From: a virus
Taxonomy: Duplodnaviria > Caudoviricetes
Virus record (IMG/VR): IMGVR_UViG_3300031992_000033
Coordinates: 1 to 64,000 of that record
DNA length: 64,000 nucleotides
Direction: 5' to 3' (one strand)
The notes under the pieces are model-generated. The model had not been told where the DNA came from, searched no databases, and worked only from the letters and a program-made list of their open reading frames with translations. Position numbers and translations under genes: made by a program. Below are positions 5,050-31,004 of the stretch, one piece after another (positions within the stretch are counted from its first letter, which is position 1; each line of letters starts with the position of its first letter).

Positions 5050-7197
5050 ATGGGCAATGTTTTTATGTGTCAAGAAGTCCATAGACATAGTATTATTCCT
5101 AAATTCGGTATAGACATAGGACAATACGGAAATAGATGGGAAGATGTTTTTATAAAGAATATTGACTTTTCTACTATGGACGATGCAGATGATTGGAGTT
5201 ATTTGTTCAGAGATTCCAAGGCGTATGATATTGACTTAGGCGCTATGGATAGTAGCGAAGTTACTAATATGGATCATATGTTTGAAGGAGTTAATTGCGG
5301 CACATTACACCTTGCTGGATTAACAATAGGTGAAGAAGTAAGTGCCGAAAATATTTTCAGCGGAACATTTGATTCGATAGATTTTACCAATGCTAAGTTT
5401 TATAGTCTGCCCGCCAATATGTTTAATGGTGCGGTAGTAAGAAATGGAATCCAATTAAGAACACTTGACACCTCAAGGCTAACAAGTCTTAGCGGTATGT
5501 TTAGTAATTCAGAAATTGCCGCTGTGGATTTAACTGGATTAGATACGTCTAATATAACAGATATGAGTAATATGTTTTATTATGCAAATATTCCAGTTTT
5601 GCTTGGATTAAAAACGTTAGACTATTCCAAGGTAACTAATGCTTCGAACATGTTTAGCAGTGCTTCTCTAGCATCCATTGATTTGTCGGGTATTAATTTT
5701 GCGTCATTGCAAGATGCGTCTTATATGTTTTGCAATGTTCGAACTGGAGGCTCTAATATTTTAACCATCAACTTATCTAATTGTAGATTTCCATCATTAA
5801 CTAATGCGTATGAAATGTTTTATGATTATAATAAACAATCTCATTTGATATTGACTGGATCTACTTTTGTATCTAATGGATTAAATGCAGCCTATATGTT
5901 TCAATATAGAAATGAACCTAATGGATTAGACCTTTCTGGCTTCGAGAGTGTAAAAATTAATGGGTGTTATAGTATGTTCTCGGATTGTGTTTTAGGAGCA
6001 ACTGATTTTTCTGTATTAGATTTCTCAGAAATGACAAGTAATGATTGGGTATTCCAGAGATGTGAAACACCTGAGATTCATTTAAGCACCAGACTTCCTA
6101 ATGACGTTACTAGTTATTATACATGGTATATAACTTATGGGGCAAAGGCTGATAATTATATTTTTGAACTCGTATTTCCATTTAACAATTCTAGTTTGGG
6201 TTATTTATTTTATGGCGATAAAGAAGGTAGTACATTTTTGTTGGATAATAGTGAAATTTATGCCACTGGTTTAAGATACTTCGGGTACTGTAAAGAAAAT
6301 ACAACCATTACCATAGAGGATTCAATTCTGCATATAGGTGATCATGGTGATTTAGGAAGTATGCTTTATTATATGCCTCATACTAGTGAGATAGATATGG
6401 GAGGATTAGTGATTGATGGAACTGTTACGTCCTCTTCTTATTTTATGTGTTACGGAACTCCAAGAGAAATAACGCTGCCTAATACAGGAATTAAATTTAC
6501 TGGAGAACTCTATTACTTTTTATATGGTACTACTAGATGGAATGAACAGACGCAAAGAAGTGAACCTTATGATATTGTTGTAAATAATTTAGACAAATTA
6601 GACGTTAGAGGAATTACACGTATGTATAATCTGTTTTATTATTTAGACGGAACGTTTGATGTGTCTGATTGGAACACTGAGTCTTTGGTTCGAATGGAAT
6701 ATTTAATAAATTCTAGTAGTGGAAATTATAATTTAAGTAATTGGAACACTGAAAATGTAACGTATATTAATTCAATTGTAAGTTCTTCACATGGCTATTT
6801 CGATTTAAGAAATTGGGATTTATCAAATTTAACATACTTATATGGAATAAGTTTAGATGGATACGAAAATTCTTACGTTGATTTGGATGGATGGAAAGTA
6901 AGTCCTGATTTACAAGTAGGTAACTTTTATGTATTAAGTGCATATAGTAATTACACATCTTCTACCTTGAATCATATTATTTACCTACCTAATACTCTTT
7001 ATCAGCCAACATCTTATCCAAATGATTCATTTGGGTATGGTGAAAATGTAATAATAGACGTTTACACTAATGCTTCAAGCATAGAAGAACAGGGATGGAG
7101 ATTCCCTCATATATATTCTGAGTCAGAGCCATATGGTTATAGGATTCATCTTAACACAACACATGATGATTTTTTGAACGCAGTAGGAGGTGATTAA
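5050..7197 (+). CDS. BspA/DUF285-type surface-repeat (LRR-like) protein
   Basis: Many DxSxVTxMxxMF repeats (DSSEVTNMDHMF, DTSNITDMSNMF, DYSKVTNASNMF). Confidence 0.8.
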   Translation: MGNVFMCQEVHRHSIIPKFGIDIGQYGNRWEDVFIKNIDFSTMDDADDWSYLFRDSKAYDIDLGAMDSSEVTNMDHMFEGVNCGTLHLAGLTIGEEVSAENIFSGTFDSIDFTNAKFYSLPANMFNGAVVRNGIQLRTLDTSRLTSLSGMFSNSEIAAVDLTGLDTSNITDMSNMFYYANIPVLLGLKTLDYSKVTNASNMFSSASLASIDLSGINFASLQDASYMFCNVRTGGSNILTINLSNCRFPSLTNAYEMFYDYNKQSHLILTGSTFVSNGLNAAYMFQYRNEPNGLDLSGFESVKINGCYSMFSDCVLGATDFSVLDFSEMTSNDWVFQRCETPEIHLSTRLPNDVTSYYTWYITYGAKADNYIFELVFPFNNSSLGYLFYGDKEGSTFLLDNSEIYATGLRYFGYCKENTTITIEDSILHIGDHGDLGSMLYYMPHTSEIDMGGLVIDGTVTSSSYFMCYGTPREITLPNTGIKFTGELYYFLYGTTRWNEQTQRSEPYDIVVNNLDKLDVRGITRMYNLFYYLDGTFDVSDWNTESLVRMEYLINSSSGNYNLSNWNTENVTYINSIVSSSHGYFDLRNWDLSNLTYLYGISLDGYENSYVDLDGWKVSPDLQVGNFYVLSAYSNYTSSTLNHIIYLPNTLYQPTSYPNDSFGYGENVIIDVYTNASSIEEQGWRFPHIYSESEPYGYRIHLNTTHDDFLNAVGGD

Positions 7198-24750: not shown

Positions 24751-25935
24751 TTAATGCGCCTTGAAGTTATATATAGGTCTGATATTGTCAACAATGTCTA
24801 CAGTGTCCTGTATATTCTTAACAATTTCGTCCATAGGCTTATAGACCGCGGGTGCTTCGTCAATAGTAGACTCTACAACTGAAGTGGAATAAATGCCTTG
24901 CATAGATTCCTTGAAGTCTTCGAGAGACAAAGCGTCCTTTGCGGCAGACCTAGAGAGTATTCTTCCCGCACCATGAGGCGCAGAATAATTCCAGTCAGGA
25001 TTACCCTTGCCAATACAAATAAGAGATCCGTCGCGCATATTCATAGGGATGATAACCCTCTCTCCTTTACGTGCTGAGATAGAACCCTTACGTAAAATCA
25101 TATCGTCCATATTTATGTAGTTGTGGATTGTATCGAAAGACTCAACCTCTGTGAGATTGGTAGCCTCAAGAATAATGTTGGCAATTGTTCTACGATTAAG
25201 TTTAGCATAATCTTGAGCAATTGACATATCGTGAATGTACTCTGTGAAAGTGTCTCCTTCTATATAGCAGAGATCATCGGGGATCGATTGTTTCTGCATC
25301 TTAAGAATCTTTATAGTGTTTTCAATATCTCTTTCCTTGCCCTCGGCTTTTAGACGCTTAATGGTAGCATCAATTTTTGCTCCAATTTCGTTGTTACGAA
25401 GAGCATTGATACCAGCCCTCTGATAATGTTTACATACCTCAATTCCAAGATGACGAGAGCCAGTATGAATTACTAGCCAATAGTTCCCATTAACATCCTT
25501 ATCTACTTCAATGAAGTGGTTGCCGCCACCGAGTGACCCAATAGATTTATCGGCATGATCTATGTCTATAGGTGCAATAATATCCTTAAGTGGTTCATAT
25601 TTGACAATCGCTCGCTCGTGAATTGAAAATCCAGAAGGGACTTTTTCGTTGATTATGGTGTCAAGTTTTTTTAAATCAACATTGCCGTCAAGTCTTACAG
25701 CCAACATTCCGCATCCAATATCAACGCCGACTAGATTAGGAACAACCTTATCTCTAAGTTGGATTGTTGTACCAACAACACATCCAGCCCCAGCGTGACA
25801 GTCGGGCATAATTCTAGTCTGACAGTCCTCCATATAAGGCATATTCATTAACTGGATAACCTGAGAAATTGTTTCTGAATCAATGTTGTCAGTAAACACT
25901 TTAGCCGTATTATATTTTCCTGTTAACTCTAACAT
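24751..25935 (-). CDS. rtcB: RtcB RNA ligase (2',3'-cyclic/3'-phosphate to 5'-OH)
   Basis: MPDCHAG, GVDIGCG, SLGGGNHFIE, HTGSR, HNY, RKG, SAPHGAGR, DEAPAVYK. Confidence 0.97.
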   Translation of the reverse strand: MLELTGKYNTAKVFTDNIDSETISQVIQLMNMPYMEDCQTRIMPDCHAGAGCVVGTTIQLRDKVVPNLVGVDIGCGMLAVRLDGNVDLKKLDTIINEKVPSGFSIHERAIVKYEPLKDIIAPIDIDHADKSIGSLGGGNHFIEVDKDVNGNYWLVIHTGSRHLGIEVCKHYQRAGINALRNNEIGAKIDATIKRLKAEGKERDIENTIKILKMQKQSIPDDLCYIEGDTFTEYIHDMSIAQDYAKLNRRTIANIILEATNLTEVESFDTIHNYINMDDMILRKGSISARKGERVIIPMNMRDGSLICIGKGNPDWNYSAPHGAGRILSRSAAKDALSLEDFKESMQGIYSTSVVESTIDEAPAVYKPMDEIVKNIQDTVDIVDNIRPIYNFKAH

Positions 25936-26720: not shown

Positions 26721-26940
26721 ATAATAAAATAAGCAGCAGCCGTTGTGTTCATTCACTTCTACTACTGCGCCCCAAACGTGTGAGTTTATTAATCACGTCA
26801 GGGTTTAGGACGAATAGAGAAACTCAAACTCTATCCCACCGAGGTATACATCCCTCGTTCCACCGATACTATCCTTGGATTATCCAAACGCTCTGGGCTT
26901 AATAGCCTATTTATACTCGCCCAGACGAGTTATTTTAACT

Positions 26941-27193: not shown

Positions 27194-27264
27194 TTGGAAT
27201 AGTGGGACTCGAACCCTACTCTTCCCTCTAATCTGAGGGCGTGCTGCTGTTACACTATATTCCT
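27194..27264 (-). ncRNA. tRNA-like RNA / pseudo-tRNA with a 6-nt anticodon loop
   Basis: Acceptor, D and T arms present; CCCTC-AGATTA-GAGGG; D loop AACAGCA lacks GG. Confidence 0.6.
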
Positions 27265-27569: not shown

Positions 27570-27639
27570 TGCCCTCCAACAGATTTGAACTGAAATCTTA
27601 GGAATAAATTCCTACATCCGACCATTAGACGAAAAGGGC
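27570..27639 (-). ncRNA. Glu-like pseudo-tRNA without a valid anticodon loop
   Basis: GCCCTTT/GGAGGGC, GTCTAATGGTCGGAT D arm, TAGGA-ATTTAT-TCCTA 6-nt loop, GTTCAAATC T loop. Confidence 0.6.
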
Positions 27640-27852: not shown

Positions 27853-28014
27853 GATAGGAATTTTCCATATGACAAAGATTCCTGAACTTTACCATATGAG
27901 TCAGAGTTCTCTATTAACTCTGCCGCTCTCTAAAGCACCACCATAGCCTTTTCATAGTCCTCGGTTTTAGTACGAGACGGGAATTGAGAGGTGGCAAGAA
28001 ACCCTTACTTCGAG

Positions 28015-28102
28015 TGATCTAGGAAGGAATCGAACCTCCACTAGCGATAAGACCTAACGCCGTTCTACGCGCTTAAAATATCTTCCATTAAACTACTAGA
28101 CC
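28015..28102 (-). ncRNA. tRNA-like RNA with expanded D loop and degenerate anticodon arm
   Basis: GGTCTAG/CTAGATC acceptor, GGAGGTTCGATTCCTTC T arm, ~24-nt D loop, loop AG GTC TT. Confidence 0.55.
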
Positions 28103-28251: not shown

Positions 28252-28274
28252 AAGGTATCTGGGAATCACCTAAG

Positions 28275-28357
28275 TGGGCAGAGTTGGACTCGAACCAACG
28301 TTGTTTCTAGTGTGGTGGATTTACAGTCCACTGCAATCGCCGCTATGCTATCTACCC
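28275..28357 (-). tRNA. tRNA-Tyr(GTA)
   Basis: GGGTAGA/TCTGCCC; GTGGA-CT GTA AA-TCCAC; long variable region. Confidence 0.9.
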
Positions 28358-28477: not shown

Positions 28478-28549
28478 TAACTGGTAGGGGAATCGAACCC
28501 CTGTTATCGCCGTGAAGGGGCGATGTCTTAGCCGCTTGACCAACCAGTC
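28478..28549 (-). tRNA. tRNA-Glu(TTC) with C at position 33
   Basis: GACTGGT/ACCAGTT; TCGCC-CC TTC AC-GGCGA. Confidence 0.88.
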
Positions 28550-28554
28550 GGAAA

Positions 28555-28633
28555 AGGACACTTTGTGGATTTGAACCACGTAATCTGATTTACAGTCAAA
28601 TGTTAACCAAAATTGATTTGCTGTGAGCGTCCC
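28555..28633 (-). ncRNA. ACAGCAA-motif RNA carrying a Tyr(GUA) anticodon arm and a T arm
   Basis: GGGACGCTC-ACAGCAA...TTTGA-CT GTA AA-TCAGA..GTGG-TTCAAAT-CCAC..AGTGTCCT. Confidence 0.8.
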
Positions 28634-28776
28634 AAGTGTTGTAAACTAGTATATACTCGCGAGATTACCTAGAAGCGTTCCGCCAATTCTTTGCATCATT
28701 GACAACGTGCTCAACGTATAGTCTATTCTGCTACCTGACTACTAGGGATAGGCTTCACCGCGCCTATAGACGGGCG

Positions 28777-28959: not shown

Positions 28960-29032
28960 CTCCTCGAGTAGGACTCGAACCTACGACCTATTGGTTAACA
29001 GCCAACCGCTCTACCGACTGAGCCATCGAGGA
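28960..29032 (-). tRNA. tRNA-Asn(GTT)
   Basis: TCCTCGA/TCGAGGA; GTTGG-CT GTT AA-CCAAT. Confidence 0.95.
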
Positions 29033-29039
29033 TCATTAT

Positions 29040-29075
29040 AAAAGTTAATAGGGGCATTGTAAAAATACCCCTATT
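29040..29075 (-). terminator. Terminator-like hairpin after the DUF2828 gene
   Basis: Minus strand AATAGGGGTATT...AATGCCCCTATT then AACTTTT. Confidence 0.6.
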
Positions 29076-29085
29076 TGTTTTTGAA

Positions 29086-30564
29086 TTACGCTATGGTGAT
29101 GGGAAGATACCTCTCAGAATTGAGTGTCTTAAGCATTGCCTCTACGGGAGTCATGTTGAGACAGTCAATCAAATTCTTGAAGGTAGATGTGGAATGACCT
29201 GAAACAAGTTGTACGCCCTTCCTGTTGCTGTCTGAATGGAAAACATCGTGTCTGCTGTTTACATTCCAGAATACTACATTAGGGATCTCATATCCATGTG
29301 ATGCAAACAAAGCCTTTACCTCGTCATAGAAGAGCCAATCTCTATTGGAGCACTGATTAATCTCCATGTCAGTAATAACCGTAATGGCTACAGGCATTTC
29401 CTCAGAAGGGATATTGTACTTGATGGCAATGTCAAGCACTTTTTCAAATGCTTTATAAAGATCGGTGGAAAAGCCCCAATTCGACTCTGATATATCGTAT
29501 ATCTTTTGCGCGAGAGTTTCTCCCTCAATATTTATAAGGGTTGGATTGTCACTAAAGGTCATAAAGAGATTATGAAATGCTCCCTTGTTTCTTTCTGCAA
29601 AATACATTGCAAGACCAATAGAACTTGCCATAGGTCTACCCATCATAGATCCAGACACATCCGCCATAACAAGGACGTTACCGCTCTCAACATAGTTAGG
29701 AAGTTGTCTCCACTGTGCCTCGAGTACGTCAGCGTCAGAAGGATTAAGATTAATGCTATATCCATTAAAATATTTCTCGACGATATCATAAGGATACAGT
29801 GTTGCACTATTAATCTTCTCCTCGCCCTTAAGAGCGCTCTGTACATAATCGCTAAAGCGCTCACCATCATGACGTGCAAACGCGCTTCTGTAGATCATCA
29901 TAGCCCTACTGGGAACTTCCGAGTACTTAATCTTATCCCACTGATTGGTAGACATATAACTCTCTACAATGTTAATGCGTCTGCGCATATTTCTAAGAAT
30001 ACGCTTAAACACCTTGACCTTATAGCCAAGTTTAATCGCGGTGAGAATACCAAGTTTGCGGGTCTTTGCAGAAGATGCATCAGGAGTCTTGATCCACTTT
30101 GCAAGCAAGGAAATGGCGTTGCCATCTTCGAGATTTGCAAGATCCTCTTCGAACTGTGTCTTCATTGCCGCCCACATCTTATCCTCAAGGGGAGTGCCGA
30201 CGAAGCAATAGAGATCATCGTATCTTCCGTATACACCAATAAGATCCATGTTGTTGATGATTGCTTCGGGATGATAGGTGGCAGCATATGCCAAGAGGTG
30301 ACGAACCACATCTCTTTCTCCAAGTCCACCCCTTACGTCTCTTGCGTAGAAAATAGTCTTTACGGCAAGAAGAGGGTTCTCTTTATATGCCTCAGAGAAC
30401 AGAATTTCTGCTCTGGTATAATCGATGCGATCCTCGTTACGAAGCGCACCAATTACGGAATAAAAATTGAGGCAAGCATCGCCAGTTGACTTAATTGCGT
30501 ATGCGCCATTTTCGGTACGTGTGCCATTCTCTTCTCTCTTCATTGCTTCTGCAAAACTATTCAT
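29086..30564 (-). CDS. DUF2828-family protein (helical domain + vWA; TROVE/Ro60-like architecture)
   Basis: TENGA..STG, RDVRGGLGER, YGRYDDL, SLLAKW, VPSRAM, KINSATLYPYDIV, MIDAS DVSGSM, TFS, TDME, VFWN; AAGGAG RBS before MNSF. Confidence 0.85.
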   Translation of the reverse strand: MNSFAEAMKREENGTRTENGAYAIKSTGDACLNFYSVIGALRNEDRIDYTRAEILFSEAYKENPLLAVKTIFYARDVRGGLGERDVVRHLLAYAATYHPEAIINNMDLIGVYGRYDDLYCFVGTPLEDKMWAAMKTQFEEDLANLEDGNAISLLAKWIKTPDASSAKTRKLGILTAIKLGYKVKVFKRILRNMRRRINIVESYMSTNQWDKIKYSEVPSRAMMIYRSAFARHDGERFSDYVQSALKGEEKINSATLYPYDIVEKYFNGYSINLNPSDADVLEAQWRQLPNYVESGNVLVMADVSGSMMGRPMASSIGLAMYFAERNKGAFHNLFMTFSDNPTLINIEGETLAQKIYDISESNWGFSTDLYKAFEKVLDIAIKYNIPSEEMPVAITVITDMEINQCSNRDWLFYDEVKALFASHGYEIPNVVFWNVNSRHDVFHSDSNRKGVQLVSGHSTSTFKNLIDCLNMTPVEAMLKTLNSERYLPITIA

Positions 30565-30590
30565 CTCTTTTCTCCTTTTCTTCATTAAAC

Positions 30591-30654
30591 ATGACTCATT
30601 TTTTCTCGTTACTATATGCGATAGAGTTTATTTTAACGTTGCTGTATGAGTCAC
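30591..30654 (-). ncRNA. ACAGCAA-motif RNA, adjacent to the DUF2828 start
   Basis: GTGACTCAT-ACAGCAA-CGTTA..CTAT/ATAG..TAACG..ATGAGTCAT. Confidence 0.75.
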
Positions 30655-30661
30655 AAGTTAC

Positions 30662-30740
30662 ATGATACCTTACATTCAATGGCAAAAAGTGTTTAAAATA
30701 ACTATTTGTTCAGATAGGATGTGTTTGCTGTAAGTATCAC
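30662..30740 (-). ncRNA. ACAGCAA-motif RNA
   Basis: GTGATACTT-ACAGCAA..CTAT-CTGAACAA-ATAG..AGGTATCAT. Confidence 0.75.
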
Positions 30741-30744
30741 TAAA

Positions 30745-30860
30745 TGGGAAGGGCGGGACTCGAACCCACAACCCACGGATTACCAGTCAATGTTTTCTGC
30801 TGTTTATATCCCCGTCAGGACATCTTTTTTACGTCGCTCTACCTTTTGAGCTACCTTCCC
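30745..30860 (-). ncRNA. tRNA-Thr(GGT)-like chimera with a permuted ACAGCAG module in the anticodon stem
   Basis: GGGAAGG/CCTTCCC acceptor, canonical D and T arms, ACG[43-nt insert]GA-CT GGT AA-TCCGT. Confidence 0.8.
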
Positions 30861-30863
30861 CAA

Positions 30864-30943: not shown

Positions 30944-31004
30944 ATGACGCGTATAGGGTGTATAATTAACAGTTATATCCTCGAATAATTGCTGTATGCG
31001 TCAC
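30944..31004 (-). ncRNA. ACAGCAA-motif RNA carrying an Asn(GUU) anticodon stem-loop
   Basis: GTGACGCAT-ACAGCAA..TATAA-CT GTT AA-TTATA..ACGCGTCAT. Confidence 0.8.

Follow-up and report, generated by a model that had tools for sequence, protein, structure and literature searches.

The question raised by this locus is what an RNA with an anticodon arm and a T arm, and with no D stem, is doing in a phage tRNA array that also contains a normal tRNA-Tyr. We analyzed a window of 64,000 nucleotides taken from the start of a virus record of 123,669 bp (estimated to be 98% complete). A first-pass annotation of this DNA had described positions 28555-28633 as a tRNA mimic whose D stem is replaced by ACAGCAA. 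We conclude that the 28633-28555 RNA (written in the direction of the minus strand) belongs to a conserved family and is probably a small, tRNA-derived RNA that does not decode, and that, by analogy with Y RNAs, it would be the partner of a Ro60-like protein.

A tRNA-like RNA in a phage tRNA array

Reading the minus strand from 28633 to 28555, we recovered the parts listed in the first-pass annotation: a D-loop-like stretch, a Tyr-type anticodon arm and a T arm, with neither a D stem nor the long variable arm. The bases after the end helix have no complement in the RNA that could form a D stem. The two ends pair in a closing (clamp) helix of 8 bp, two of which are G-U (GGGACGCU with AGUGUCCU). 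The clamp helix and the adjacent single-stranded ACAGCAA would together form what we call the handle. The parts are as follows.

28555-28633, minus strand: the whole tRNA-mimic handle RNA, 79 bases (from the sequence, covariance model R1 and the Rfam tRNA model)
28626-28633, minus strand: 5' strand of the closing (clamp) helix, GGGACGCU, partner of 28555-28562
28625, minus strand: spacer C, a single base between the 5' strand of the clamp and ACAGCAA
28618-28624, minus strand: single-stranded handle 7-mer ACAGCAA, with little or no variation in three family alignments and enriched in the window
28603-28609, minus strand: D-loop-like UGGUUAA, with GG as at tRNA positions 18-19 and no D stem
28583-28601, minus strand: anticodon-arm mimic, 6 bp, 28601-28596 with 28588-28583
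28589-28595, minus strand: anticodon-type loop CUGUAAA, 7 nt, with GUA at 28593-28591
28580-28582, minus strand: UAC between the anticodon-like arm and the T arm
28565-28579, minus strand: T-arm mimic GUGG / UUCAAAU / CCAC, with a 4-bp stem
28563-28564, minus strand: linker AA from the T arm to the 3' strand of the closing helix
28555-28562, minus strand: 3' strand of the closing helix, AGUGUCCU, partner of 28626-28633

Several of these parts are those of a tRNA. The anticodon-type loop has 7 nt, U33 and a purine at 37, and the T loop is of the UUCRANY type. The UGGUUAA is embedded in an A/U-rich stretch. The RNA does not encode CCA; after the closing helix come UUUCC and tRNA-Glu, which starts at 28549, five bases 3' of the RNA. 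ACAGCAA occurs 21 times in the 64-kb window compared to 8.4 times expected, and no shuffle reached 21.

The Rfam tRNA model (RF00005) matched 28557-28616 with 33.1 bits (gathering score 29), in an alignment that relies on weak A/U acceptor pairing and not on the end helix that co-varies in the family (see below). No Rfam family other than tRNA matched the RNA, and YrlA (RF02553) gave no match on it at E up to 10. The first-pass annotation had proposed ARAGORN as a check on the mimic. Its bacterial mode did not call the RNA, and its metazoan-mitochondrial mode reported a 'D-loop mtRNA-Tyr(gta)' with a D-replacement loop. A fold of the element obtained with ARAGORN at lowered thresholds was meaningless, and we discarded it.

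The RNA lies in a tRNA array that runs from 31127 to 25967 on the minus strand and comprises 15 ARAGORN calls and a pistol ribozyme. Other features in and around this array are listed here, together with tRNA-like genes from related viral contigs (L001-L003).

30944-31004, minus strand: handle RNA copy A, with Asn-type loop CUGUUAA (R1 22.2 bits)
30746-30862, minus strand: tRNA-like gene with a hairpin-closed (permuted) handle as an insert
30661-30740, minus strand: handle RNA copy B (R1 29.3 bits; RF01414 16.2 bits)
30590-30654, minus strand: handle RNA copy C, in the 5' leader of the DUF2828 gene (R1 29.2 bits; RF01414 15.0 bits)
29086-30585, minus strand: gene for a DUF2828 + DUF7788 protein, 499 aa (Pfam E 5e-40 and 2e-38)
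29047-29075, minus strand: terminator-like hairpin after the DUF2828 stop codon (found by consensus scan only)
29035-29063, minus strand: sigma-70-like promoter, 11/12 matches, overlapping the terminator-like hairpin (found by consensus scan only)
24751-25935, minus strand: gene for an RtcB RNA ligase, at the far end of the same tRNA array (Pfam PF01139, E 2e-61)
L001 3659-3776; L002 1195-1315, 1373-1489 and 1494-1620; L003 1570-1690: tRNA-like genes of relatives with the permuted handle

The 28633-28555 RNA starts 453 nt past the stop codon of the DUF2828 gene, on the same strand. The annotated location, downstream of the DUF2828 terminator and among tRNAs, is borne out: upstream are the hairpin (29075-29047) and tRNA-Thr, which ends 142 nt from the RNA, and downstream is tRNA-Glu. 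The 142-nt spacer (28634-28775) is not unusual in structure (z +1.18). The promoter at 29063-29035, as identified by its consensus, would drive tRNA-Asn, tRNA-Thr, the 28633-28555 RNA and tRNA-Glu.

Normal versions of the mimicked tRNAs are close by. A normal tRNA-Tyr(gta) is at 28274-28357, 198 nt from the 28633-28555 RNA (about 200 nt in the first-pass annotation, which had it right), and a normal tRNA-Asn(gtt) is at 28960-29032. The 7-nt loop of tRNA-Tyr is identical to that of the 28633-28555 RNA. Likewise, the 7-nt loop of tRNA-Asn is identical to that of copy A, the duplication of the Asn loop that had been noted before. In both cases the stems are unrelated.

Four copies of the handle have a free closing helix (the 28633-28555 RNA and copies A, B and C), all within 2.5 kb and on one strand. 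Copy A sits directly after a consensus promoter (31044-31016). The handle RNAs of this phage have a common 5' half: a helix strand G-K-G-A-Y, 1-2 bases, and ACAGCAA. We found no further convincing copy elsewhere in the whole phage genome.

We also noted several other elements in this array and in related arrays. The permuted-handle insert (stem, short loop, stem, two bases, 7-mer) is present in complete tRNA-like genes in L001, L002 and L003 as well, and the arrangement is kept in relatives at ~60% protein identity. The pistol self-cleaving ribozyme (RF02679, 63.6 bits; 26868-26930, minus strand) is ~1 kb from the RtcB gene, and its cleavage would leave ends of the kind that RtcB joins. ARAGORN called a tRNA at 28014-28102 (minus strand; Rfam tRNA 37.6 bits) with a 4-base anticodon (agaa) and an identity that the tool left unassigned; its anticodon loop may be 8 nt. 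Two stretches on the minus strand, 27570-27639 and 27194-27264, gave weak matches to the tRNA model (32.1 and 29.0 bits, respectively) and no ARAGORN call, and could be more tRNA-like oddities of the array. In L001, an int-alpA RNA (RF02996, 55 bits) is at 5902-5973, just after tRNA-Cys and downstream of the DUF2828 gene.

A family of RNAs with a common layout and varying anticodon loops

We place the 28633-28555 RNA in the T-arm class of a previously undescribed, Y-RNA-like family, and it is typical of that class. We scanned IMG/VR for ACAGCAA followed 34-48 nt later by the core of a T loop. There were 116 matches, and 47 of these, of which 28 were distinct, had a closing helix of 7 perfect pairs at the expected position. 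The sequences of the end helix differ freely among the 47 elements. The family has at least 31 distinct relatives of the 28633-28555 RNA with the same layout, and in most members a GG with A/U-rich bases recurs at the place of the D loop. Searches of the literature (DUF2828, Ro-like phage proteins, tRNA decoys) found no description of these RNAs, and a search of the Atlas added no eukaryotic relatives.

We built a covariance model, R1, from 23 relatives and left out the copy in the window. This model matched the 28633-28555 RNA over its full length with 54.6 bits (E 2e-9), the best match in the 64 kb and inside the range of the other members (45.9-85.6 bits). Copies A-C ranked next (22-29 bits), through the handle alone. 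Over 131 sources, R1 gave 57 matches at E up to 1e-5, with scores of 43-86 bits.

The helices of the family co-vary. In the 32-row alignment from the first R1 search, 94.8% of the pairing cells in the end helix and T stem were paired compared to 71% in shuffles, and both sides had changed in 96 cells compared to 27 in shuffles; these counts come from an alignment that was fitted to the model. Sliding the partner strand, as a control, dropped pairing in the same alignment to 30-50%. Both sides had changed at all 8 pairs of the closing helix across the 32 members. In the T stem, co-variation is seen at the outer two pairs, and the inner two are G-C in every member. The seeds of R1 had been picked for a perfect closing helix, that is, pairing of the end helix is partly built in, whereas no selection had been made on the T stem. 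RNAalifold on a plain MAFFT alignment recovered both the end helix and the T stem. In the MAFFT alignments, however, the anticodon-like arm and the 3' clamp strand were misplaced, and we therefore counted that arm in each sequence against shuffles and assessed the other helices in the model-based alignment.

Counted in this way, 20 of the 31 distinct members had a 7-nt loop of the form Y-U-NNN-R, compared to 7% of shuffles. The mean stem score of the anticodon-like arm was 4.9 (3.2 in shuffles), so its stems exceed the length expected by chance, and the sequences of the stem differ between members. Among 213 handle elements of all kinds, the Y-U-NNN-R signature was present in 64 of 152 hairpins, compared to 8.5% of shuffles.

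Which anticodon loop is displayed varies. The commonest loop in the T-arm class is CUGCAAA, of the Cys type, one transition from the CUGUAAA in the window. Other loops in this class are of the Met, Leu, Ser, Gly and His types, and some lack U33. Even among 20 near-identical contigs with the RNA in the leader of the gene, the loop was CUAAAAA in 14 and CUGCAAA in 6. That is, a real anticodon loop is displayed, and the Tyr identity is not conserved. This variation in loop identity argues against decoding and also against a story specific to GUN anticodons. The first-pass annotation had suggested cleavage assays with nucleases of the colicin E5 type, which target GUN anticodons; we found no special support for a link to these nucleases, as neither Tyr nor GUN is a trait of the family. 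We rejected a GUN-specific target as a family property since loops of the Cys, Met, Leu, Ser, Gly and Lys types are as common or commoner.

As a separate observation, loops in the T-arm class are mostly NNA-A-A, as in tRNAs that carry i6A37, and loops in the small class are mostly NNU-A-A, as in tRNAs that carry t6A37.

The comparison of relatives also revises the description of the element. A tRNA mimic with ACAGCAA in place of the D stem fits both the copy in the window and its at least 31 distinct relatives. ACAGCAA and the end helix are, though, a single conserved module, and what would be the acceptor stem of a tRNA is the clamp of that module.

The DUF2828 gene and a proposed role for the RNA

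The family is tightly linked to the DUF2828 gene. In the pieces of sequence that we fetched around the 47 elements from the pattern scan, a DUF2828 homolog was on the same strand for 35 and on the opposite strand for none, and 12 pieces had no such gene. Only 704 of 50,697 phage records (~1.4%) have a DUF2828-type gene. Handle RNAs of the simple kind, on the strand of the gene, flank it in phages that infect Bacillus, Listeria, Staphylococcus, Enterococcus, Mycobacterium (cluster L), Aeromonas, Salmonella and Campylobacter. No handle was seen within 2.5 kb of one DUF2828 locus, that of a Klebsiella jumbo phage.

The position of the RNA relative to the gene is not fixed. Upstream members of the family lie 77 nt to 3.9 kb from the gene and downstream members 62 nt to 2.2 kb, and they are often inside tRNA arrays. 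The claim that the motif is not only an element of 5' untranslated regions is thus upheld. In the 20 near-identical contigs, the RNA does end in the leader, 77-78 nt before the start codon of the DUF2828 gene.

Genes for RNA ligation and end healing are also found nearby. RtcB or another RNA ligase is encoded near the DUF2828 gene in the window, in Listeria phage P100plus and in Klebsiella phage fENko-Kae01. In Enterococcus phage H1, a cyclic-phosphate processing gene and a phosphoesterase gene are near the DUF2828 gene. Bacillus phage Tsamsa has an RNA of the same class as the 28633-28555 RNA at L005 1869-1954. Upstream of its DUF2828 gene, two handle RNAs are separated by ~300 nt without an annotated gene (L005 2510-2830), a stretch that may hold a larger RNA.

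The DUF2828 protein encoded in the window is predicted to have a Ro60-like fold. Searches of the PDB with the protein sequence and with profiles found nothing useful, and the link to Ro60 is by fold only. We made an AlphaFold2 model from an alignment of 23 sequences (pLDDT 84, pTM 0.86). The top 13 fold matches of this model in the PDB were all Ro60/TROVE proteins, over the full length (E 1e-8 to 2e-5, TM 0.49-0.62), including Ro60 from Xenopus and human, Rsr from Deinococcus and Ro60 from the Thermus phage phiLo. Ordinary vWA domains matched only at E above 5e-3. The vWA metal site, DxSxS, is intact, and D309, S311 and S313 are invariant in the DUF2828 alignment. Some database records already name such proteins 'Ro-like RNA binding protein'.

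Animals, some bacteria and a few phages are known to have Ro60 and Y RNAs, and this precedent suggests how the system could work. Ro60 binds the end helix of a Y RNA, and the DUF2828 protein may bind the handle similarly. The tRNA body without a D stem (the D-loop GG, the arm with a 7-nt anticodon loop and the T arm) would then be displayed on the protein. The 28633-28555 RNA would be transcribed with the neighboring tRNAs from the promoter at 29063-29035 and probably excised during tRNA processing. The particle would most likely act in a conflict between phage and host over tRNAs. It could show a tRNA look-alike to host factors directed at anticodon loops and serve as bait or decoy for nucleases. 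It could also recruit enzymes that handle or repair tRNAs, as Y RNAs tether partners to Ro60.

These proposals differ in strength. The RNA family is conserved and co-varying, tightly linked to a gene for a protein with a predicted Ro60 fold, and recurrently near tRNA arrays and genes for RNA ligases or end-healing enzymes. Based on the precedent of Ro60 and Y RNAs, we infer that the handle is a binding site, that the RNA is processed, and that the body is shown to something that recognizes tRNAs, as a decoy or adaptor. We think it quite likely that the 28633-28555 RNA is a partner RNA of the DUF2828 protein. A role for the RNA in tRNA damage or defense has perhaps a little less than an even chance. 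Faithful copies of anticodon loops, several per phage, favor bait, decoy or adaptor over a housekeeping role. That the RNA is specifically a decoy is doubtful, and the way in which loop identities vary and drift across the family argues against a decoy for one fixed nuclease.

Could the RNA instead be a working D-armless tRNA-Tyr, comparable to the D-armless tRNAs of mitochondria, that undergoes processing and CCA addition, is charged and reads UAY codons? Its canonical anticodon and T loops, its location in a tRNA array, the Rfam score above threshold and the mitochondrial-mode call of tRNA-Tyr(gta) all fit. Bacterial TyrRS, however, uses the long variable arm of tRNA-Tyr, which this RNA lacks, and ARAGORN in its bacterial mode rejects the RNA. 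Neither an invariant ACAGCAA nor linkage to one protein gene is a property of tRNAs. In addition, a normal tRNA-Tyr is 198 nt away, relatives have 0-9 nt between the T arm and the end helix, loop identity drifts even between close relatives, and some loops lack U33. We therefore regard a working tRNA-Tyr as highly improbable, and the first-pass proposal that the mimics are not needed for decoding is plausible. The RNA could also be a decaying pseudogene with no function of its own: degenerate copies do occur in phage tRNA arrays, and the weak tRNA-like matches at 27570-27639 and 27194-27264 are nearby. Yet dozens of unrelated contigs have this architecture, the 7-mer is invariant among them and three helices show compensatory changes, and the stems and T arm of the 28633-28555 RNA are unlike those of the tRNA-Tyr of this phage. 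Decay is an extremely unlikely explanation.

The handle could also be a signal for processing, stability or autoregulation and not the anchor of a stable particle, for example an operator by which the DUF2828 protein represses its own mRNA with other copies titrating the protein, and the tRNA-like body could serve only for folding or for cutting by RNase P and RNase Z. The leader position of the RNA in the 20 contigs and of copy C in the window would suit an operator, and the 28633-28555 RNA abuts tRNA-Glu, so that tRNA processing enzymes would set its ends. But many copies are downstream or kilobases away and have their own promoters, conserved anticodon-type loops with co-varying stems are superfluous for a mere operator, and binding of the handle by a protein would still be required. 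We consider this explanation unlikely. It is also conceivable that the RNAs are sponges or substrate mimics for enzymes that modify anticodon loops (i6A37-type for the T-arm class and t6A37-type for the small class) and so change host tRNA modification during infection. The two loop patterns agree with this (Cys, Tyr, Leu and Ser-UGA in the T-arm class; Lys, Asn, Met and Ser-GCU in the small class). The pattern was recognized after the fact, though, from small counts and with exceptions in the T-arm class (Gly, His, Met), and it leaves the link to RNA ligases unexplained; we find this explanation very unlikely. The reading that we favor is that of a Y-RNA-like partner of the DUF2828 protein.

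The ACAGCAA-handle RNA family is new here, uncatalogued as of our searches of Rfam and the literature; Ro60-Y RNA systems were already known. Our findings point to a second branch of the Ro60 fold, unrelated in sequence, in ~1.4% of sequenced phage records. This branch comes with its own RNA handle and with modular tRNA look-alikes, some of which copy exact anticodon loops. The purpose of the tRNA-like parts of Y RNAs can thereby be tested in convenient phage-host pairs, such as those of Bacillus, Listeria, Staphylococcus and Mycobacterium. The system also has a link to genes for tRNA repair, and it bears on anticodon nucleases, which are now of interest as defenses against phages. There is also a use in annotation: handle elements are now missed or are called odd or pseudo tRNAs.

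Comparison with known RNA systems

The 28633-28555 RNA is like a tRNA (RF00005) in its anticodon arm, T arm, D-loop GG, location in a tRNA array and score above the Rfam threshold. It is unlike a tRNA in that there is no D stem, the end helix co-varies as part of the handle, relatives have a linker between T arm and end helix, and the RNA is linked to a protein gene.

The handle has the same design and the same 7-mer as the Class I RNAs of Dictyostelia, whose RF01414 consensus runs from an end helix of 6 bp through CUUACAGCAA and a variable body to the 3' strand and CUG. Weak full-length matches to RF01414 fall exactly on copies B and C in the window (15-16 bits compared to a gathering score of 41.5). 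There was no match to RF01414 on the 28633-28555 RNA, and a weak one at 104584-104640 of the genome, at a distance from the DUF2828 locus, is probably due to chance. With their 6-bp end helix and 11-nt motif, Class I RNAs measure 42-65 nt, and they were reported to be unique to Dictyostelia (Kjellin et al. 2021, PMC7919456). In contrast to the handle RNAs, they are eukaryotic, have no tRNA parts, and have an RRM protein as their known direct binder. We treat the likeness as one of shared design and not of membership. The shared handle offers a clue to the Class I RNAs of social amoebae, which are unexplained. A much broader notion is that the handle and the Ro60-like DUF2828 protein are an old, unrecognized kind of ribonucleoprotein, present in many phage lineages and, through the Class I handle, in eukaryotes. 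In phages, the handle would be a universal adaptor by which interchangeable parts of tRNAs (anticodon arms or whole tRNA bodies) are loaded onto the protein as programmable decoys or sensors of anticodon-directed host nucleases, with the 28633-28555 RNA as a cartridge of the Tyr/Cys type. We consider this notion rather unlikely.

Some DUF2828-adjacent handle RNAs are like YrlA (RF02553) in having a permuted tRNA domain (T arm, acceptor-like hairpin, D arm). [quoted passage not shown] Phage Lumos likewise has three handle RNAs (L014 3996-4252) after a 'Ro-like' gene. In both phages, the middle RNA has the permuted tRNA domain of the YrlA type and the outer RNAs have loops of the Ser-GCU or Cys type. 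Versions with a permuted tRNA are also found in phages of Bacillus and Salmonella and in other mycobacteriophages. The 28633-28555 RNA differs from YrlA in that it is in tRNA order (D loop, anticodon arm, T arm) and has its two ends at the acceptor position, whereas YrlA has no anticodon arm.

The closest comparison is with Yrn1 and other Y RNAs. In bacteria and in 22 phages, Y RNAs with a GNCGAA motif and a domain that resembles tRNA are encoded next to genes for TROVE-domain Ro60 proteins (Chen et al. 2014, PMC4201824). The Ro60 of phage phiLo binds two RNAs with a CGAA motif (Yrl1/2) and also host PNPase (PMC12135203). In Salmonella, Ro60, Y RNA and RtcB are in one operon and respond to damaged tRNA (PMC7790460). 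Unlike in Y RNA systems, the protein here belongs to Pfam DUF2828/DUF7788 and is not TROVE by sequence, and there are several differently built copies of the RNA per phage. ACAGCAA stands in place of the GNCGAA/CGAA (GGUCCGA-like) motif of Ro60-bound Y RNAs (PMC4201824, PMC12135203), and the anticodon-type loop has 7 nt in the 28633-28555 RNA and 6 nt in Yrn1. As with Yrn1 and other Y RNAs, a small RNA is beside, and on the strand of, a gene for a protein with a predicted ring-shaped TROVE+vWA fold, its ends close in a helix next to a short conserved motif (the protein contact in Y RNAs), and its body mimics a tRNA. Yrn1 of Deinococcus radiodurans has D-loop features without a D arm, an anticodon-like arm and a T arm, and no variable arm (PMC4201824), and this layout is also the layout of the 28633-28555 RNA.
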